From positions 1 through 6,429 of the IMG/VR virus record IMGVR_UViG_3300013666_000001: 6,429 nucleotides of DNA; one strand, given 5' to 3'. Below the pieces are notes generated by a model that had not been told where the DNA came from, did no database searches, and was given only the letters and a program-made list of their open reading frames with translations. Positions within the stretch are counted from its first letter, which is position 1; each line of letters begins with the position of its first letter. The DNA is from a virus. Made by a program: the position numbers and the translations under genes. Positions 1 to 6,429 of the stretch are shown in pieces.

Positions 1-103
1 GTGCATGCACATGGAAGTCGCTTTATGTACTTCGTTGACTGGCTCACGGTGTCCCAAGAACACGCATTCGACCTTCCGGTCGTGTGCGATGTGATGACTA
101 TCA
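1..103. repeat. Terminal direct repeat, left copy (circular-genome overlap)
   Basis: Bases 1-103 are identical to 6327-6429 in my base-by-base comparison. Confidence 0.95.
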
Positions 104-1158
104 CAATCGACACGAACACCAATGAAGTGCTCTCCACCCGCCAGCCTCGCTTCAAGCATGAGGCCAGTTATTCCACTTCAGTCACGATCCATGTGCAGGG
201 GCGGAAAATCCGCGTCGAGGGCAACCCAAGCCGGGTAGGGCGCCTGGACAACCTGTTCGGTTTCTCGACCATCGAACAGTGTGTTTCGGTCTACAACCAG
301 CTTCTGGCCGAGTACGGCCTACCGGGCTTCACCCGCTGCACCCGTGTTGATCTGCGGGACGGCGCTTCAGGTGCAAAGACCGGTGATCGCGTGGCAGACG
401 GCGCCAAGATCGAGCGCATCGATCTCACCACGAACGTATCGGTAGGCGAGGGTAACGTGCTGGCCTACCTGCGCGGCGTTTCCTCCCAGCGCATCGGCCA
501 CAGCATCGGCTTCCTGTATCCCAACGGCCGCACCGTCGCGTGGACCCCGAAGGGCAACGGCAAAGGCGGGCGCCTCCAGTACCGCAAGGCCTACGACAAG
601 GCTTTTGAGCTGGACGAGAACCTGCTCCCGAAGATCAAGCGCCTGTACGGCGATGAATCCCCCGAGTTCCTGTACGTGCAGCGCGTCCGCGACTACTGCG
701 CCCTTCATGGCGTGGTTCGGATGGAGCAGGAGCTGAAAAACGAATTTTTGCAGCGCGAATGCTTGGCCTATTGGGGCCTGTTTGACGAACGGCGTTTTGC
801 CGAACTCCACGACGAGTTTTTGAGAATTGACGAACGACTGAAGGTGACCGCCATGGACATCGTTTCCATATCCGAGCAGCTCTTGGCTGAGCAGATCGTA
901 GACACCACCCGTGCAGCGAACACCACCGCTATGTATGCCATTCAGTGGATGCACGGCCAGCAGTTCGACTTCGGCAAGAAGCAAGTCCAGACCCATGCCG
1001 CTCGCCTCAACCGCATCGGCATCAACATCCGTAACGCCTGCGATACCTCACGCTTCGCGCCTGTCTTCGTCCGTCAGGCCCGCGAAATCACCAAGTCCAC
1101 CGTGCTGGCCATTCCGAGCTGGTACCAGCGCCCGAACCATCTGCAGGTGGCTGCATGA
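25..1158 (+). CDS. Rolling-circle replication initiator (filamentous-phage gpII / RstA-like Rep)
   Basis: Long ORF 1-1158. I prefer the ATG at 25 (MYFVDWLT...), which has GGAAG 7 nt upstream. The GTG at 1 (=6327 on the circle) is an alternative; the frame is closed upstream by TGA at 6309-6311. An N-terminal DWL motif, EGNPSRVGRLDNLFGF and a Tyr motif (RKAYDKAFEL) match what I recall of phage/plasmid Rep proteins of the gene II/CRI/Rep_trans type. It is the first gene downstream of a divergent repressor, like rstA in CTXphi. Confidence 0.8.
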   Translation: MYFVDWLTVSQEHAFDLPVVCDVMTITIDTNTNEVLSTRQPRFKHEASYSTSVTIHVQGRKIRVEGNPSRVGRLDNLFGFSTIEQCVSVYNQLLAEYGLPGFTRCTRVDLRDGASGAKTGDRVADGAKIERIDLTTNVSVGEGNVLAYLRGVSSQRIGHSIGFLYPNGRTVAWTPKGNGKGGRLQYRKAYDKAFELDENLLPKIKRLYGDESPEFLYVQRVRDYCALHGVVRMEQELKNEFLQRECLAYWGLFDERRFAELHDEFLRIDERLKVTAMDIVSISEQLLAEQIVDTTRAANTTAMYAIQWMHGQQFDFGKKQVQTHAARLNRIGINIRNACDTSRFAPVFVRQAREITKSTVLAIPSWYQRPNHLQVAA

Positions 1159-1271
1159 TGCGCACCCTCTACTCCGTTGCTTGCCAGTTTTTCTTTATTG
1201 GCGGTGCCATTGCTGGCTGGTTCATCGCTGCTTTCTACATCGGCAAGTTATTTGGATGGTTCTTCGCATGA
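1155..1271 (+). CDS. Small hydrophobic protein (38 aa), translationally coupled to Rep
   Basis: My translation: MMRTLYSVACQFFFIGGAIAGWFIAAFYIGKLFGWFFA. The ATG overlaps the rep stop as ATGA (1155-1158), with AGGTGG at 1145-1150. It has one predicted TM segment. The six-frame track omits it because it is short. Confidence 0.45.
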   Translation: MMRTLYSVACQFFFIGGAIAGWFIAAFYIGKLFGWFFA

Positions 1272-1354
1272 TCGCACCGACCCTCTCTCTCCTGGTCACC
1301 CTCGCGGGCGGTGTCATCGCGCTCTACTTCGTGCGCTTGGAGTTCCGTCCATGA
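1268..1354 (+). CDS. Small hydrophobic protein (28 aa), translationally coupled
   Basis: MIAPTLSLLVTLAGGVIALYFVRLEFRP. The start overlaps the previous stop as ATGA (1268-1271) and its own stop overlaps the next start as ATGA (1351-1354). Single TM segment. Size and composition resemble gpVII/gpIX-type minor coat proteins, but the position is atypical. Confidence 0.35.
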   Translation: MIAPTLSLLVTLAGGVIALYFVRLEFRP

Positions 1355-1584
1355 CTCGCACCGTCAGCTTCCAAGGCACCCAGCTCACCAGCGGCCAGCG
1401 CCGCCGCCTTCAAGAGCAACAGCAGGCCCGGCCATTCGTTAACCCGGTTCTGCAGCAGCAAGTAAACGAAACCCTGGCAGCGCTCGAAGCTCGCCAGTCC
1501 GAGGGCATCAAGCCCGAACGCCAATGGTTCTTGGAACGCCAAGAGCGTGGCACTCCCTGCGTTGCCGACCTGTTCGGCTTTTAA
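1351..1584 (+). CDS. Hypothetical basic, Gln-rich protein (77 aa)
   Basis: MTRTVSFQGTQLTSGQRRRLQEQQQ... GGAG at 1339-1342 lies 8 nt upstream of the ATG. It fills the gap between the micro-ORFs and the gpV-like gene. It is the C-terminal part of track ORF 1177-1584. Confidence 0.6.
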   Translation: MTRTVSFQGTQLTSGQRRRLQEQQQARPFVNPVLQQQVNETLAALEARQSEGIKPERQWFLERQERGTPCVADLFGF

Positions 1585-1596
1585 GAGGCAATACCC

Positions 1597-1884
1597 ATGG
1601 CTATGACTATCAAGATCGAAACCACCGGCAACTTCCGTACCGGTACCGCTGCCAAGTCTGGCAAGCCCTACTGGATGGCCGAAGCCTACGCGCACCTGCC
1701 GGGCGTCCCGTACCCGCAGAAGTTCAGCTACTACGCCGCCTCTCAGAACGAAGTTTTGCCGGTCGGTCATTACGAGTGCGACATTTCCTGTTCTATCAAG
1801 GATGACCGCATTCACTTCGAAGTTGACCCGCGCCAAGCCCGCCGCATTTCCGCTCCGGCTCCTAAGGCGGTAGGCGCTAATTAA
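1597..1884 (+). CDS. Putative ssDNA-binding protein (gpV-like)
   Basis: 95-aa ORF with AGAGG at 1584-1588, 8 nt upstream of the ATG. Its size and its position between the replication genes and the coat genes match inovirus gene V. Function is inferred from synteny only. Confidence 0.6.
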   Translation: MAMTIKIETTGNFRTGTAAKSGKPYWMAEAYAHLPGVPYPQKFSYYAASQNEVLPVGHYECDISCSIKDDRIHFEVDPRQARRISAPAPKAVGAN

Positions 1885-2072
1885 TGGACACCTACGTCTG
1901 CACTGAACTTGTCAATGGCGTCTGCCAAACATGGGTCGTGCAGTCTTCAATAATTCCGCCTCTCACTGTTACTGATGGGCTGAAACTCGGATGGGCCGTT
2001 GTTGCGTGTTACGGCGCTGCCTGGGGATGTGGTTTGTTAACACGCTTTCTTCTATCTCATGAAAGGAACTGA
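1884..2072 (+). CDS. Small membrane protein (62 aa), candidate minor coat (gpVII/IX position)
   Basis: The start overlaps the upstream stop (TAATG). It has a C-terminal hydrophobic segment (GWAVVACYGAAWGCGLL) and lies directly upstream of the major coat gene. Confidence 0.55.
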   Translation: MDTYVCTELVNGVCQTWVVQSSIIPPLTVTDGLKLGWAVVACYGAAWGCGLLTRFLLSHERN

Positions 2073-2075
2073 AAT

Positions 2076-2216
2076 ATGGATGGCTCGATGATTCCCGCTG
2101 ACGTACTGACCGCGATCACTGCACTCAAGGGCGATGTTCAAACCATCGGTGGTGCAATGTTCGTTGTTGTGCTTGTAGTGGTGGCTTTCGCCTACTTCCG
2201 CCGTTCCGCTCGTTAA
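2076..2216 (+). CDS. Major coat protein (gpVIII), leaderless Pf3-type
   Basis: My translation: MDGSMIPADVLTAITALKGDVQTIGGAMFVVVLVVVAFAYFRRSAR (46 aa). It has an acidic N-terminus, a hydrophobic core and a basic C-terminus. AAGGA lies upstream. TAL.GDV.TIGGA aligns with TAVQADITTIGGA of the Pf3 coat as I remember it. A terminator follows. Confidence 0.85.
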   Translation: MDGSMIPADVLTAITALKGDVQTIGGAMFVVVLVVVAFAYFRRSAR

Positions 2217-2234
2217 TTCGAGCCTCGGCAACTA

Positions 2235-2258
2235 GGGGGCTTAGCGGCCCCCTTTTTT
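2235..2258 (+). terminator. Rho-independent terminator after the coat gene
   Basis: GGGGGC (2235-2240) pairs with GCCCCC (2247-2252) around a 6-nt loop, followed by TTTTTT (2253-2258). The placement is the same as the terminator after gene VIII in Ff phages. Confidence 0.8.
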
Positions 2259-2271
2259 ATTGGAGTTCCGA

Positions 2272-2364
2272 ATGGACGTTGCAAGTTGGGAGTTTTCAGG
2301 ATGGCTTGTTGTTTTCGTTATGGTCTCGTCCTTCTGGCTGCTGTTCTATACAGCGTCCAAGTAA
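2272..2364 (+). CDS. Candidate 30-aa hydrophobic micro-ORF overlapping the gpIII start (speculative)
   Basis: MDVASWEFSGWLVVFVMVSSFWLLFYTASK. TGGAG at 2261-2265 lies 6 nt upstream of the ATG. It overlaps the gpIII signal-peptide region in another frame, which can by itself produce hydrophobic alternative-frame peptides. Confidence 0.2.
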   Translation: MDVASWEFSGWLVVFVMVSSFWLLFYTASK

Positions 2365-3638
2365 GCGCCTCGGTTCTTACTCCTATAACCGACCCCGGCA
2401 CCGGTCAAAAGGTATATGTTCCAAAGCCTGACGGACTTGAGCGCTCGCGCACCTTTAATTCCAACGTCAACGTCGGGTCAGGCTCTTTAACGATCCCTAC
2501 CAAGCTTAGTGGTAAATTCGGGTGGGCGAAGGTCGGTACCGCTGTACGCACTATTGCCAAGGGGTCGCCGCAGGCTGTTATAGGTAGTGTTGCACTCGCA
2601 TACCTTCTTGACAAAATACCGGGCGGCTCCGTAGGTGCCGACGGAACGCTATACCGGACTCCGGACCTAGTGACCTCCGGTTACTACTGGCCGGCCAACC
2701 TCGCCAACTCGTCCCCAGGGCATGTCGTTACCCGCCATTCATCAGCGGACGCTGCATGCAAGTCCCTATGGCCGCAGGCTGTCTCTCCGCAAACTGTTCG
2801 CCTCAAACAGACTGGCACTACTTCATACGATTGCATTCGTTATGATCCTTGGTCGTCTGTGCCCGAGCAATATATCGGCTACACGCAAAGAACGGCGTTT
2901 AACTGTCCTAACGGTGTTAACCCTGACTACACATGCCGAAGTACTAAGCCTTCGCCTGTTCCTTTTTCGGATGCCGATTATGAACAGCTCGCATCCCACG
3001 TCCCATCAATTCCACAAGAGCATTGGGCGGACTTCGGCCCTCGTCTCGACTCAATCCCCGGAACCTTTGATTATCCAGACGCCACCGACTTCACAGGCCC
3101 CGCCTCTGTTGATTTGCCGTCAGTTACTACAACCACGACTAACCCCTCAACTGGCGATATATCTGTAACTGAAACCATGCCTTCAATTCAGTTCAAGTAC
3201 AGTCCCTCGCCGCTTTCTGTTACCGCGACCCCGACCTCAACTACCACCACATATCAGAACGGCATCAAAACTAGCACTTCTACAACCACGACCACCACCA
3301 ACAATACGACCACCGTCACGCCGCCTAAAATCGAAGTCCCAACTGACTGCGCGTTCATGCCGACAGTCTGTTCATTCATTGATTGGGTTAAACAACCATT
3401 CACCGAGGAAGCTCCAGACTTCTCTGATTTTATCGATGATGAGGATTTTTCAGACTCCATAACTATTCCGGGCAATGCAACTTGTCCAGCTCCTACAATG
3501 ATCGAGACTAATCTCGGCTCATATGAATTCAGCTGGCAGCCTGCGTGCACCTGGGCGGGAATGATCAAACCGCTTGTTATCATTGCTGCACTAATTGCAG
3601 CCATCTATATCAGTCTCGGCGTAGCGAGGTCGGAATAA
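2301..3638 (+). CDS. Adsorption / minor coat protein (gpIII-like)
   Basis: The track ORF starts at TTG 2286. I prefer ATG 2301, which has GGGAG at 2288-2292. It has a signal peptide (MACCFRYGLVLLAAVLYSVQVSA|S), Thr-rich low-complexity linkers (TTTTTNPS, TSTTTT, TSTSTTTTTTNNTTTVT) and a C-terminal TM anchor (LVIIAALIAAIYISLGV). It is the largest ORF and lies downstream of the coat gene. Confidence 0.8.
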   Translation: MACCFRYGLVLLAAVLYSVQVSASVLTPITDPGTGQKVYVPKPDGLERSRTFNSNVNVGSGSLTIPTKLSGKFGWAKVGTAVRTIAKGSPQAVIGSVALAYLLDKIPGGSVGADGTLYRTPDLVTSGYYWPANLANSSPGHVVTRHSSADAACKSLWPQAVSPQTVRLKQTGTTSYDCIRYDPWSSVPEQYIGYTQRTAFNCPNGVNPDYTCRSTKPSPVPFSDADYEQLASHVPSIPQEHWADFGPRLDSIPGTFDYPDATDFTGPASVDLPSVTTTTTNPSTGDISVTETMPSIQFKYSPSPLSVTATPTSTTTTYQNGIKTSTSTTTTTTNNTTTVTPPKIEVPTDCAFMPTVCSFIDWVKQPFTEEAPDFSDFIDDEDFSDSITIPGNATCPAPTMIETNLGSYEFSWQPACTWAGMIKPLVIIAALIAAIYISLGVARSE

Positions 3639-3919
3639 TGCCTGCGATTCTCGTAACTATCGGCGTTTACATAATCTCCAGCGTCATCGCTAAGATATTC
3701 GTTGCGCTTGGCATTGGCGTCTTTACTTACTACGGATTGCTCACGCTCGTTGAGCAACTTGTACAGCAGGTGCAAGTTGCTTTTGGCGGTCTTCCGGCGC
3801 AAGTAAGCCAAGTTCTTAGTATCGCCGGAATTCCTCAGGCACTTTCCATCGTCTGTAGCGCTTTCCTAACTCGCGCTTCCATACAAGCCATTCAAACCTT
3901 CTTCGGGTCTCGCATATGA
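3638..3919 (+). CDS. Minor coat / membrane protein (gpVI-like)
   Basis: 93 aa beginning MPAILVTIGVYIISSVIAKIFVALGIGVF. GAGG lies 8 nt upstream. The start overlaps the gpIII stop (TAATG) and the stop overlaps the gpI start (ATGA). It has multiple hydrophobic segments and sits between gIII and gI as in other inoviruses. Confidence 0.7.
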   Translation: MPAILVTIGVYIISSVIAKIFVALGIGVFTYYGLLTLVEQLVQQVQVAFGGLPAQVSQVLSIAGIPQALSIVCSAFLTRASIQAIQTFFGSRI

Positions 3920-4941
3920 TCACCCTTATCACCGCTGTTCCCGGTAGCGGGAAAACCCTTTACTGCATTGGCCTGATTCTTAAGGCAGTTGAGGAGGGCA
4001 GACCGGTCTATTCCAACATCGCCGGCCTGAAAATCCCGCAGTGCCATCCAGCCCCTGACGACTGGAGAGACACACCCGAGGGCTCGCTCGTTGTTTACGA
4101 CGAGGCTCAACAGCCGCACCTGTATCCATCCACCGCTCACCGTGGTGAGGTCAAGGACGAGCGTCTACGCCAGATGGAAGTCCATCGGCACACTGGCCAT
4201 GACCTTGTTTTCGTCAGCCAATCGCCCAGCTTTCTTCATCACCACATCCGCAAGCTGGCCGGTGAGCACATCCACCTCTATCGAGCCTTTGGCGCTAAGA
4301 TCGTTACCAAGTACACATGGCAACATACCGTTGACTCTCCCAACGATCGGGGCGAGCAGGGCAGAGCAGACAGCGTCCCATGGAAGTTTCCGAAAGAGCA
4401 CTTCCAGTACTACCAGTCGGCCACCATCCATACTCACAAGTTCAAGGTGCCTAAGAAGCTCGCGGCGCTCTTGATATTCATCGTCGTTGTATCTGGTCTG
4501 GTCGTTTGGAATGCTTCAACCAATCAGAACAGCCTGCTGACCGGCTCAGGTGCTGACATTCATCAACCTGTTGCCTCTGCAACGGCAGCGCCTTCTGAGC
4601 CCGGTGGTGTACGCGCAGCGTCCACCACGGGCCAGAAGAAAGCGCTGCCAGCTACGACAACCCTCTATGACTGGTCAGAAACCGAGACGGCCAAGCCTGT
4701 TGCCGGCTGCATTTACAACGCGACCCGTTGCCAGTGTTTCGACGCTTCCGGTTCGCTCTACGCGATGGCTCATGCACAATGCCTGTCCGTGGCAACTAAC
4801 ATGCTGCCGCGATCCATCAACGTAGGAGGTTCTAGCCGTGGGTCTTCAAGACAGGGAATGGTTTCAGGAGAGTCGCAACAATCGCTCATCGGCGCGAATC
4901 CATTCGCCGAGGCAGCAACCCCGGCGCCGGGGGTTCTTTAG
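3916..4941 (+). CDS. Assembly NTPase gpI (Zot family)
   Basis: The N-terminus MITLITAVPGSGKT contains a Walker A motif. LVVYDEAQ is a Walker B motif. A central TM segment (LAALLIFIVVVSGLVVW) is followed by a Cys-containing C-terminal domain. This is the typical Zot/pI architecture and position. Confidence 0.88.
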   Translation: MITLITAVPGSGKTLYCIGLILKAVEEGRPVYSNIAGLKIPQCHPAPDDWRDTPEGSLVVYDEAQQPHLYPSTAHRGEVKDERLRQMEVHRHTGHDLVFVSQSPSFLHHHIRKLAGEHIHLYRAFGAKIVTKYTWQHTVDSPNDRGEQGRADSVPWKFPKEHFQYYQSATIHTHKFKVPKKLAALLIFIVVVSGLVVWNASTNQNSLLTGSGADIHQPVASATAAPSEPGGVRAASTTGQKKALPATTTLYDWSETETAKPVAGCIYNATRCQCFDASGSLYAMAHAQCLSVATNMLPRSINVGGSSRGSSRQGMVSGESQQSLIGANPFAEAATPAPGVL

Positions 4942-5035
4942 TCACTTTGTCGTGCTCGTCCTGGGCATTGTGATCGGCATGGTCGTTGCCGACCTGCACT
5001 GGCTCGACATGCTGCGGCAGCAGCTCCCGTTCTGA
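4838..5035 (+). CDS. Hypothetical 65-aa membrane protein overlapping the gpI 3' end out of frame
   Basis: GTG start with a perfect AGGAGG (4824-4829) 8 nt upstream. Basic N-terminus and one TM segment (FFSHFVVLVLGIVIGMVVA). It overlaps gpI by 104 nt in a different frame. Confidence 0.45.
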   Translation: MGLQDREWFQESRNNRSSARIHSPRQQPRRRGFFSHFVVLVLGIVIGMVVADLHWLDMLRQQLPF

Positions 5036-5041
5036 TTGGGC

Positions 5042-5076
5042 GCTTCGCATAATTGAGGCTCGGCGTTATGTTGAGC
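5042..5076 (+). other. dif-like XerC/XerD site A with an over-long spacer (attP half)
   Basis: GCTTCGCATAA (9/11 to the E. coli dif XerC arm GGTGCGCATAA), then a 13-nt spacer, then TTATGTTGAGC (8/11 to the XerD arm TTATGTTAAAT). Confidence 0.65.
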
Positions 5077-5121
5077 CGGTGCGCTGGGACTATCCTGCGG
5101 CCAGCGCAGCCCGTAGGGCAG

Positions 5122-5150
5122 GCGTAACATAACGGCGGATTATGCGAGGC
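5122..5150 (-). other. dif-like XerC/XerD site B, inverted orientation (attP half)
   Basis: The minus strand reads GCCTCGCATAA-TCCGCCG-TTATGTTACGC, with arms of 8/11 each to dif and a 7-nt spacer. It is complementary to site A, so the two pair in ssDNA. Confidence 0.65.
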
Positions 5151-5153
5151 GAC

Positions 5154-5282
5154 TGGTACCATTTTTGCGGATCTCCGATCGCACCAGGTCGAACAAATGG
5201 TACCAATCTCTAGGTATTCTTCGGATGGTTTGGTACCATTTCCCTCCTCGAGGAACGAACCTGGTTGAAAGGAAAGGTACCA
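5154..5282. promoter_or_regulatory. Array of four palindromic operator-like sites (consensus AWWGGTACCWWT)
   Basis: TGGTACCA at 5154-5161, 5198-5205 and 5231-5238, and AGGTACCA at 5275-5282. A/T-rich symmetric flanks: CTGGTACCATTTT, AAATGGTACCAAT, TTTGGTACCATTT, AAAGGTACCAAAA. Centre-to-centre spacing is 44, 33 and 44 bp. The last site overlaps the RBS of the 5285 ORF. Confidence 0.6.
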
Positions 5283-5284
5283 AA

Positions 5285-5539
5285 ATGCTGATCAAATTCG
5301 ATGTGACCACCGAGGAAGGTGACCGCCTCAAGATGCAGTACGGCCAGAAGGTCGCCAGTAAGGCGTTCAAAATGGCCGCACTCGATGCCTTCGACCTGTA
5401 CCACAAGAATCAGGAGCTGCACGAAGTCATCGATAGCCAGCGAACGGAGATTCGCCGGCTCCGCCACATCATCGAGCAGGCCCGCGCCTCGGCTGCTCAG
5501 CTGCTTGAAAAGACTGGTCAGGAGGACCTTTATGCTTGA
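5285..5539 (+). CDS. Hypothetical 84-aa protein, possible ribbon-helix-helix regulator with a C-terminal coiled coil
   Basis: ATG at 5285 with GGAAAGG upstream. The track ORF from TTG 5165 would read through the operator array, so I reject that start. The N-terminus LIKFDVTTEEGDRLKMQYG...ASKAFKMAALDAF has a strand-helix-helix pattern. The C-terminus is heptad-like (EIRRLRHIIEQARASAAQLLE). Confidence 0.6.
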   Translation: MLIKFDVTTEEGDRLKMQYGQKVASKAFKMAALDAFDLYHKNQELHEVIDSQRTEIRRLRHIIEQARASAAQLLEKTGQEDLYA

Positions 5540-5747
5540 GTACTACATGGACCCAGCAACGGAGCGGCGCTGGCTTGATAACGCCCATGTCAGGGCGTGG
5601 AAGTCTTGGTGGTATTGGGAGGGGAAGCACTTCGACAATGGTCGCCGCCACCCCGATTGGCAGTTGGTCAGTCCGCCCGGTAACGCGCAATGCGCTGCTT
5701 TGAACGTCCCCATTCCCGCTGGAATCCTTGATCAGTCAAGGGCCTGA
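5532..5747 (+). CDS. Hypothetical Trp-rich 71-aa protein
   Basis: ATG at 5532 with AGGAGG (5520-5525) 6 nt upstream. It overlaps the upstream stop by 8 nt. MLEYYMDPATERRWLDNAHVRAWKSWWYWEGKHF... I recognise no family. Confidence 0.55.
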   Translation: MLEYYMDPATERRWLDNAHVRAWKSWWYWEGKHFDNGRRHPDWQLVSPPGNAQCAALNVPIPAGILDQSRA

Positions 5748-5751
5748 CCGG

Positions 5752-5769
5752 AAGCCGCAGCGGCTTTTT
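5752..5769 (+). terminator. Weak candidate rho-independent terminator
   Basis: AAGCC (5752-5756) pairs with GGCTT (5762-5766) around a 5-nt loop, followed by TTT. It lies directly after the stop at 5747. The stem is short. Confidence 0.35.
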
Positions 5770-5979
5770 CGCATCGCTCCACCGCGAAAAAACGAACGGG
5801 TGAGGATCAGGGGCGAAGCCTTCACCCTTGACCCTTCCTCCGTCCCTCCACTCTCCGCCTGGGGAGCAGGGGAGAGCTTTTCCCCCTGCACCCCTGGCCC
5901 TCGCCGAGAGACCCCCGGTAGGGCCGTCGGAGACGCTCTTGATCTTGCTTCTTGGCTCGCCGATCTGGAGCCGGATGGG

Positions 5980-6024
5980 GTGGGGGTGCTGTTACACCCC
6001 CACTTTACCGTGGTTTCCCACGGT
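5980..6024. other. Tandem perfect hairpins (candidate terminator of the minus-strand gene and/or ori or packaging structure)
   Basis: GTGGGGGTG (5980-5988) pairs with CACCCCCAC (5995-6003), 9 bp with a 6-nt loop. ACCGTGG (6007-6013) pairs with CCACGGT (6018-6024), 7 bp with a 4-nt loop. The second hairpin abuts the stop codon of the minus-strand ORF. Confidence 0.5.
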
Positions 6025-6233
6025 CACTCGTACTCAATGACTATCTCGCCCTCGCTTGTCAGCTGGGCGTAAGCCAATGATTTTTCAAGGATTTTGTGCA
6101 CAAGCTCGCTATCCCTGAGCGGTTGGCGCCCCTGCTTTATCAGTAACTTGTTGATTTCTATTGCTTTTTGCCTGAGCGCTTCCTGCTCGGATTGTGTCAG
6201 GCGCACGTTCGTTGGCATGTCGTTCCCATTCAT
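6024..6233 (-). CDS. Putative phage repressor, ribbon-helix-helix-like (69 aa), divergent from rep
   Basis: MNGNDMPTNVRLTQSEQEALRQKAIEINKL...RDSELVHKILEKSLAY shows a beta-strand (VRLT) followed by two helices, typical of Arc/CopG-type proteins. The minus strand has GAGGTGGATCA before the ATG. It is the only minus-strand gene, placed like rstR relative to rstA. Confidence 0.65.
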   Translation of the reverse strand: MNGNDMPTNVRLTQSEQEALRQKAIEINKLLIKQGRQPLRDSELVHKILEKSLAYAQLTSEGEIVIEYE

Positions 6234-6337
6234 TGATCCACCTCATCAAAATCATACGTGTGTGCATGTGACTCGTATTGACTTGTGCACGTTCGCACGT
6301 GTAGATTTTGAGCCATTGTTATTTGTGTGCATGCACA
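6234..6337. promoter_or_regulatory. Divergent promoter/operator region between the repressor and rep
   Basis: A 10-bp direct repeat TGTGTGCATG occurs at 6259-6268 and 6324-6333. TTGTGCAC is at 6283-6290. The 12-bp palindrome TGTGCATGCACA is at 6326-6337. GCACGT occurs twice (6288-6293 and 6295-6300). On the minus strand, TATGAT (complement of 6251-6256) is a possible -10 for the repressor. Confidence 0.55.
6278..6307 (+). promoter_or_regulatory. Candidate sigma70-type rep promoter
   Basis: TTGACT (6278-6283), an 18-nt spacer, then TAGATT (6302-6307), about 45 nt upstream of the rep ATG (6351 = 25). The spacer contains the GTGCAC/GCACGT motifs. Confidence 0.5.
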
Positions 6338-6429
6338 TGGAAGTCGCTTTATGTACTTCGTTGACTGGCTCACGGTGTCCCAAGAACACGCATTCGACCT
6401 TCCGGTCGTGTGCGATGTGATGACTATCA
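6327..6429. repeat. Terminal direct repeat, right copy (circular-genome overlap)
   Basis: Identical to 1-103. This implies a 6326-bp circular or tandem unit. Confidence 0.95.
6351..6429 (+). CDS. Rep N-terminus, duplicate partial copy truncated by the window end
   Basis: Same sequence as 25-103 (MYFVDWLTVSQEHAFDLPVVCDVMTI...). It is the same gene seen again because of the terminal redundancy. Confidence 0.9.
   Translation, partial: MYFVDWLTVSQEHAFDLPVVCDVMTI

Follow-up and report, generated by a model that had tools for sequence, protein, structure and literature searches.

A probable folded plus-strand attachment site and probable XerCD-dependent integration at dif in a Pf3-like filamentous phage

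Introduction

How a phage without a recombinase gene of its own could enter the host chromosome is the question raised by positions 5042-5150 of IMG/VR virus record IMGVR_UViG_3300013666_000001. The window (the whole stretch of DNA that was analyzed, i.e., positions 1 to 6,429 of that record) represents a circular filamentous-phage genome with a unit of 6326 nt, as positions 1-103 are repeated at 6327-6429. An original prediction, made from the sequence by itself, had seen in 5042-5150 two inverted dif-like sites which fold into a forked hairpin on the + strand and thereby form a phage attachment site (attP) for XerC and XerD, recombinases of the host, in the manner of CTXphi. In the light of the results described below, it is close to certain that 5042-5150 is a XerCD/dif attachment site. 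For the full mechanism, in which the integrase-less phage integrates via the folded attP of its + strand and host XerC/XerD, we estimate a probability of about 0.78.

Two inverted dif-like sites form a forked hairpin on the + strand

The pattern CGCATAA-N(4-16)-TTATGTT matched the window exactly twice: at 5046-5072 on the + strand with a 13-nt spacer and at 5126-5146 on the - strand with a 7-nt spacer. Since 200 shuffles yielded 0 matches, no chance match is expected, and the predicted pair of inverted sites with spacers of 13 and 7 nt was thus recovered by this search. Site A spans 5042-5076 (+) and site B 5122-5150 (inverted); the CGCATAA and TTATGTT arms are exact in both. The region is composed as follows.

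5042-5052, + strand: XerC-binding arm of site A, GCTTCGCATAA; exact arm match, top strand of the folded attP(+)
5053-5065, + strand: central region of site A, 13 nt, TTGAGGCTCGGCG; structured as in the minimum free energy (MFE) folds
5066-5076, + strand: XerD-binding arm of site A, TTATGTTGAGC; pairs with 5122-5132 in the MFE structure
5077-5121, + strand: apical forked part, with stem 5080-5087/5101-5108, 13-nt loop 5088-5100, and mini-hairpin 5109-5112/5116-5119
5122-5132, - strand: XerD-binding arm of site B, TTATGTTACGC as read on the - strand; bottom strand of the folded site
5133-5139, - strand: central region of site B, 7 nt, TCCGCCG on the - strand
5140-5150, - strand: XerC-binding arm of site B, GCCTCGCATAA on the - strand; pairs with 5042-5052

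Folding of the + strand of 5030-5160 as DNA showed that the forked hairpin is indeed its MFE structure (-39.7 kcal/mol, z = -6.19), and none of 200 shuffled sequences was as stable. The - strand of the same segment reached only -31.1 kcal/mol and was therefore 8.6 kcal/mol weaker. Within a 401-nt context (4900-5300), the hairpin was kept in both the MFE and the centroid structure. All four pairings listed in the original prediction were present in the MFE structure: the XerC-arm helix (5041-5053 with 5139-5151, with a single wobble, T5044·G5148), the XerD-arm helix (5066-5073 with 5125-5132, including a G5073·T5125 wobble and followed by an A5074xG5124 mismatch), and two further helices (5075-5077 with 5121-5123 and 5080-5087 with 5101-5108). 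In addition, the mini-hairpin at 5109-5112/5116-5119 makes the apex of the hairpin forked.

The center of the hairpin differed from the open bubble of 12 by 6 nt that had been envisaged. Following the T5053-A5139 pair, 5054-5059 formed a 6-nt bulge in the top strand only, whereas the remainder of the center was paired (5060-5062 with 5136-5138 and 5064-5065 with 5133-5134) apart from a 1x1 mismatch, G5063xG5135. As a consequence of this paired center, the XerC and XerD arms are held at the 7-position spacing of site B. The + strand carries nearly all genes of the window, and inoviruses package the gene-carrying strand. Scans of 19 main and alternative open reading frames (ORFs) from both strands of the window against Pfam and PHROGs revealed no integrase, transposase, or resolvase, as had been predicted.

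Related prophages are integrated at dif

For comparison, about 60 loci (denoted by L numbers) were gathered by searches with the Zot protein and the site A sequence. Near-identical prophages were present at dif in L009, L012, and L023, the window-type attP itself was found at dif in L053, and more distant relatives occupied dif in L003, L004, L011, L013, and L014. All mapped junctions were located at dif rather than in a tRNA gene, as expected for a XerCD-dependent element.

The similarity between the window and prophage contigs L009, L012, and L023 stopped at 5052-5054, where host TCTATATTATGTTAAAT began. At the right junction (seen in L009, L012, L023, L011, L013, L003, and L004), phage sequence ending in gggcgcttCGCATAA ran into tctataTTATGTTaaat, which was followed by a flank common to L009, L011, L012, L013, and L023. 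This junction thus has the form of phage gcttCGCATAA plus host tctata/tgtata-TTATGTTaaat. At the left junction (seen in L011, L014, L023, L053, L003, and L004), the host XerC arm was joined directly to the central region of phage site A, followed by the XerD arm, the loop, and site B. The left flank common to L011, L014, L023, and L053 adjoins an AraC-like gene, and in L053 the host XerC arm was followed by the window's own sequence, with exact TTGAGGCTCGGCG. L011 and L023 contained both junctions on one contig. Moreover, identical host flanks surrounded different phages in L011, L014, L023, and L053.

These junctions place the crossover at 5052/5053 in the top strand of site A, between the final base in the XerC arm and the first one to three central bases, and not inside 5133-5139 as originally predicted. 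Among the prophages examined, the crossover was always located in site A with its long spacer and never in site B with its canonical spacing, which fits a folded site and not a duplex site.

The complete chromosome of Ectopseudomonas mendocina (L004) contained two tandem prophage copies (143-6357 and 6358-12572, about 50.7% along the record). Its three junction sites read gattCGCATAA plus phage, gcttCGCATAA plus phage, and gcttCGCATAA-tgtata-TTATGTTaaat, and the dif rebuilt from them, GATTCGCATAATGTATATTATGTTAAAT, is identical to the published dif of P. aeruginosa PAO1. The right end thus regenerates a dif into which further phages can integrate. Heterologous arrays at dif were observed as well: the upstream region of L013 (1-4528) holds another inovirus-like region, and a junction between an L011-type phage end and a window-type attP was seen in L054, L055, and L059.

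The prophage flanks of L011, L014, L023, and L013 belong to one organism group with a GC content of ~58-63% and a dif central region of TCTATA. They were not syntenic with the Pseudomonas-lineage flanks of L003, L004, and L006, and a literature search for the exact TCTATA-type dif string gave no match.

Several loci deviated from this general pattern. In L008 and L020, the XerC arm was followed by other sequence. In L006/L029 (Halopseudomonas), the one dif seen resembled a right junction and lay about 1.7 kb past Zot; the left end was not matched by the pattern used. L003, a Pseudomonas sp. metagenome-assembled genome (MAG), contained an extra dif-like site (gcttCGCATAA-tgtgag-TTATGTTtaac, 4440-4459, - strand) ~70 nt upstream of its left junction, which may be the remnant of another Xer-dependent element. 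L018/L019 and L025 shared a related nonphage flank that lies downstream of the right junction, after a dif with a differing XerD-arm end (aagt/aaag); L018 and L019 exhibited a single difference, T versus C at the first central base.

The hairpin is conserved, covaries, and is biased toward the + strand

Fifteen distinct hairpins of relatives shared the layout of the window, i.e., a XerC-arm stem, a top-strand bulge, pairing of the rest of the center, and a XerD-arm stem topped by an apical stem-loop that varies. In these hairpins, the bulge comprised 3-6 nt and started after the first one or two bases of the center. Spacers of site A ranged from 8 to 13 nt, and those of site B from 6 to 8 nt (mostly 6; the window and L017 have 7, and L016 has 8). 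The same layout was also found in the deposited Phage silverpheasant213 and in the P. aeruginosa phages 17897 and WX_Y.

The arms of sites A and B were found to change jointly, as in the TTACGTT types and in L028 (4560-4650), a low-GC relative with a 53% identical Zot. L028 had the same hairpin, with GCCATAA instead of CGCATAA in both sites, which implies that the dif of its host differs in the XerC arm. RNAalifold on alignment A1 predicted 29 pairs, 14 of which had compensatory double changes. One of these (C-G in 8 sequences, T-A in 6) belongs to the XerD arm, and the apical stems covaried across relatives, too. Under this structure, 94.6% of cells were paired compared to 81.4% in shuffled alignments (0 of 500 shuffles reached 94.6%), and the covariation score was 0.396 versus 0.170 in shuffles, while controls with slid partners were only 27-43% paired.

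In all 15 aligned hairpins, the + strand fold was more stable than the - strand fold, by 1.7 to 10.4 kcal/mol. The + folds contained 53 G·T pairs in total and 0 A·C 1x1 mismatches, whereas only 1 G·T pair was present in the - folds. Since an inverted repeat that functions only as a duplex should decay to G·T and A·C equally, this bias indicates selection acting on the + single strand.

Directly 3' of site B, the sequence of the variant phages L049-L060 was of two types, switching immediately after the XerC arm, which suggests that the attP module ends there. In the same loci, the 13-nt apical loop (5088-5100) was hypervariable among otherwise identical hairpins. Variants of this loop in the window and L049-L060 included ctatcctgcgg, ctatcgaccgg, ctatcatccgg, and ctatcacacgg, among others.

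Proposed mechanism and alternative explanations

On the basis of these observations, we infer that single-stranded DNA (ssDNA) is the substrate, that catalysis is by XerC only, and that integration is resolved by replication and is irreversible. In the packaged + strand, site A would pair with the inverted site B, so that the stem of the hairpin imitates dif, with an 11-bp XerC arm, a center at the 7-nt spacing of site B, and a XerD arm. The 6 extra nucleotides of the top strand would be bulged out beside the XerC cleavage point. XerC would then cleave the top strand after A5052 and swap it with the top strand of host dif, for which no more than the initial one to three central bases would have to pair: phage TT could pair with the host bottom strand (T-A, T·G), and host TCT with site B (T-A, C-G, T·G). 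Replication would turn the resulting junction into a prophage. Its left flank would consist of the host XerC arm and phage sequence from 5053 onward, and at its right flank a working dif would be rebuilt from the phage XerC arm and the central region and XerD arm of the host, allowing further phages to integrate and arrays to form. From tandem copies, rolling-circle replication by the G2P initiator would give rise to new + strands.

Neither site is likely to be usable as a duplex, given the spacers of 13 and 7 nt, the unlike-dif center of site B, and the wrong orientation of the latter; integration should thus be irreversible. For + strand circles to arise anew from tandem prophages, the G2P initiator would consequently be required, a role in release that is extrapolated from CTXphi. 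With respect to the bottom strand, TCCGCCG in the center of site B matches host TCTATA at the first two bases only. As read from the junction data, the first two central bases of site B are those of host dif in 5 of the 6 prophages with known host dif, which suggests that site B supplies the bottom strand for exchange. Since a TGTATA dif would pair at the first base only, the window phage is predicted to prefer TCTATA hosts, in which near-identical relatives occur.

Several findings weigh against integration of the folded + strand. The central region of the phage top strand shares only 1-3 nt of homology with host dif, and the TCTATA-type host is represented by prophage flanks alone, an empty site not having been recovered. 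The strand bias is absent from phage 17897 (-33.8 versus -34.2 kcal/mol) and small in WX_Y. Furthermore, some wobbles are common by descent, so that the ratio of 53:1 overstates the number of independent events; by our reading of the alignment, about 11 columns contain G·T and 3, all poorly aligned, contain A·C. Lastly, the prophage junctions fit a folded single-strand site and a XerC-cut duplex site A alike.

The last point speaks for an alternative akin to VGJphi, in which site A of the double-stranded replicative form would itself be the attP and XerC would exchange one strand pair at its XerC side. XerC-only exchange is likewise used by VGJphi-type phages, and filamentous phages employ + strand hairpins for other ends. 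Site B and the hairpin could be assigned another single-strand role, as complementary-strand origin or packaging signal. However, the spacers of site A vary among relatives (8-13 bp) and are longer than those of dif and the known duplex attP sites (6-7 bp), and site B would have no reason to retain full XerC and XerD arms at a spacing of 6-8 nt, to change these jointly with those of site A, or to match the first central bases of host dif. The strand bias would also be left unexplained, as would the fact that the extra top-strand bases always bulge beside the XerC cleavage point, and the packaging signal of Xanthomonas phages is a separate short hairpin, distinct from attP. We therefore consider use of duplex site A improbable.

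An even smaller chance is given to extrusion of the inverted repeat as a cruciform from the supercoiled replicative form, with its + strand arm as the Xer substrate. Such a structure, for which an imperfect palindrome of 109 nt could in principle suffice, would present the identical folded site and yield identical junctions; yet extrusion would be expected to be hindered by bulge and mismatches as well as by the 44-nt apical region, G·T pairs specific to the + strand mean A·C mismatches in the opposite arm, and for CTXphi, reviews name the + single strand as the integrating form. Hardly credible, finally, are the proposals that the intergenic hairpin, located after the last morphogenesis genes, is mainly a terminator, packaging signal, or complementary-strand origin with incidental dif arms, or that duplex site B, which alone resembles a near-canonical dif, is the attP: the prophage junctions lie exactly at the XerC arm of site A, within bona fide dif sites, a terminator scan made no call on the hairpin (the sole nearby call was 4919-4932), and site B was rejected as attP since recombination there would yield a prophage inverted relative to dif, with an intact site A beside Zot, which was never seen. 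A second role of the hairpin besides that of attP is possible.

Comparison with CTXphi and other Xer-using elements

Integration through the folded + strand would assign the window to the CTX type of integrative mobile elements exploiting Xer (IMEX), and the features of this type were found here: inverted XerC/XerD sites with the respective spacers, a + strand fold, lack of a recombinase gene, integration at dif, and arrays. The CTX-type hijack of XerCD put forward in the original prediction accordingly held as regards dif integration, the hairpin, and the absence of an integrase, but not as regards the position of the crossover. The CTXphi architecture described there agrees with reviews, according to which attP1 has a 12-nt spacer and attP2 a 5-7-nt spacer, about 90 bp apart. 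Reviews further describe a + strand forked hairpin, XerC-only exchange, replicative resolution, and irreversibility, with phage being made from tandem copies. Exchange in CTXphi depends on base pairing, either Watson-Crick or wobble, directly adjacent to the XerC site (PMC3089051).

CTXphi and the window have in common inverted dif-like sites with a long (12 versus 13 nt) and a short (5-7 versus 7 nt) spacer, a crossover at the XerC side, a dif rebuilt on one side, tandem arrays, and no integrase. For a direct comparison, minimal hairpins were constructed from attP1, a GAAA loop, and the reverse complement of attP2 of CTXphi El Tor (sequences from PMC3089051) and from the equivalent parts of the window. 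Both folded to almost identical dot-bracket structures, consisting of the XerC stem extended by the first central T, a top-strand bulge of 5 or 6 nt, 3 bp, a 1x1 mismatch, a 10-bp stem over the XerD arm, another 1x1 mismatch (XerD-arm position 9), and 2 bp. The outer end of the site A XerD arm matches TTATGTTGAGG of CTXphi attP1, and that of site B matches TTATGTTACGG of attP2; i.e., the outer ends GAG and ACG are common to both phages, and the central regions share TG.GGC.CGGC and T.CGCC. In contrast, the XerC arm is CGCATAA (Pseudomonas-type dif) in the window but CGTATTA in CTXphi, the distance between the arms is 44 nt versus about 90, and the backbone of the window is Pf3-like (coat protein B without leader, G2P replication protein). 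Most relatives of the window also differ from CTXphi in having a simple, unforked apex and bulges of 2-4 nt.

Tentatively, and with the odds somewhat against it, the folded attP could be a portable cassette common by descent to CTXphi and Pf3-like Pseudomonas phages, which may be retuned to each host dif via the XerC arm and the first central bases. In support of this idea, the likeness between CTXphi and the window extends beyond the dif consensus, 1x1 mismatches are located at matching places, and in metagenomic contigs several unlike sequences are found upstream of the attP module. Were this the case, XerC-only, one-way recombination would have the conserved mismatches and the 2-6-nt bulge as its functional determinants, and the natural variant series described here would constitute a ready-made mutational map.

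CUS-1phi of E. coli and Ypfphi of Yersinia pestis are listed in reviews as CTX-type based on attP sequence features. According to the same reviews, they resemble the window phage as non-Vibrio filamentous phages at dif, often in tandem, but they have enterobacterial hosts and belong to an unrelated phage lineage. VGJphi-type and Xanthomonas-type phages (Cf1c, phiLf, and XacF1) also use host XerCD and integrate at dif, in the VGJ type with a first exchange by XerC, but differ in having a single dif-like site with canonical spacer and reversible duplex recombination. Instead of the single duplex site with a ~7-bp center that characterizes the VGJ type, the window has two sites, and site B is not at the crossover. 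TLC-type elements are described in reviews by a degenerate XerD arm, a dif-identical center, and a XerD-first exchange driven by an activation factor, whereas in the window both XerD arms are good (TTATGTT) and the centers are unlike dif.

Within our own data set, the distant relatives L030-L046 (Zot 37-39% identical) contained a single minus-strand dif-like site with a canonical 6-bp spacer (e.g., L031 6903-6922, - strand, atttCGCATAA-tgtata-TTATGTT), and the same pattern search found no second dif-like site in these loci. By their sequence organization, they are of the classical duplex attP type. As described in PMC4792948, integron attC sites are folded single-stranded hairpins with extrahelical bases at which a tyrosine recombinase exchanges one strand, followed by replicative resolution. 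Integrons differ from the window in the recombinase (IntI), the unrelated sequence of their sites, and in not being phages.

Relation to integrase-less Pf phages of Pseudomonas aeruginosa

Two phages in GenBank have the same hairpin with two inverted sites: 17897 (L061, OR621025; 1-120 plus 7171-7182) and WX_Y (L062, OQ354711; 5686-5806). The 12-nt terminal repeat annotated in 17897, TTCGCATAATGT, equals the XerC arm plus TGT of PAO1 dif, and the replication protein of WX_Y is annotated as RstA1. In surveys of the Pf prophages of P. aeruginosa, the integrases reported are encoded by the phage. A 2023 paper described small Pf prophages that lack an integrase (groups 4-7, with 17897 in group 7) and have terminal repeats of 11-12 nt in "intergenic regions"; host-encoded integrases were suggested as a possible route for groups 4-6 only, and the route of 17897 was left open. 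A literature search did not find CTX-type integration described in Pseudomonas phages.

CTX-type integration itself is already known, and proposals beyond Vibrio (CUS-1phi and Ypfphi) precede ours. According to reviews, direct integration of phage ssDNA by host XerCD was demonstrated for CTXphi and proposed from sequence for the two enterobacterial phages. The window and its relatives would add a third, unrelated lineage, the Pf3-like phages of Pseudomonas, Ectopseudomonas, and Halopseudomonas. Compared to the earlier proposals as reviewed, the comparative support from covariation, strand-specific wobbles, mapped junctions, and arrays is new. The finding also suggests a concrete way in which the small Pf prophages of P. 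aeruginosa that lack an integrase could integrate. As the prophage rebuilds dif and stacks in arrays, such phages could shape the terminus region of Pseudomonas and lysogenic conversion, similar to IMEX arrays in V. cholerae.

Genome organization and further features of the window

The following genes were identified on the + strand by Pfam/PHROGs scans; other ORFs matched only families without known function.

1-1158, + strand: G2P-type rolling-circle replication initiator (Pfam PF05155, 7e-21; PF05144)
1597-1884, + strand: ssDNA-binding protein
2076-2216, + strand: coat protein B, 46 aa, no leader
2286-3638, + strand: pIII-like protein
3638-3919, + strand: DUF2523
3916-4941, + strand: Zot/pI

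Zot of the window and Zot of Pseudomonas phage Pf3 share 58% identity, and related prophages were found in a Pseudomonas sp. MAG, E. mendocina, and Halopseudomonas formosensis. The Pf3 relationship of Zot and the hosts of these prophages support a Pseudomonas-like host lineage, in line with the Pf3-like phage and non-Vibrio host originally proposed. The same pattern search detected no dif-like pair in Pf3 itself, and the attP module is thus not universal in the Pf3-like lineage.

The sole convincing minus-strand gene (6024-6233; 69 aa; phrog_5642, 2e-26) faces the replication gene and is kept in relatives (tblastx). The only promoter-like site called (6278-6307) sits between these two genes. 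The 69-aa product is likely a repressor or regulator.

The palindrome TGGTACCA (core GGTACCA) was present at 5154-5161, 5198-5205, 5231-5238, and 5276-5282, i.e., in four copies within 130 nt between attP and the ORF at 5285-5539, and a fifth copy (1120-1127) was located inside the replication gene. In total, 9 strand-hits were counted versus 0.48 expected, and the copies paired mutually in the single-strand fold of the 401-nt context. This array resembles a set of operators for a dimeric regulator.

Finally, a GC-rich, noncoding region at 5748-6020 contained several inverted repeats (e.g., 5857-5872/5883-5898) and is a candidate for the replication origin or packaging region; its segment 5961-6010 exhibited 94-97% identity to the P. 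aeruginosa inoviruses 17897 and WX_Y.

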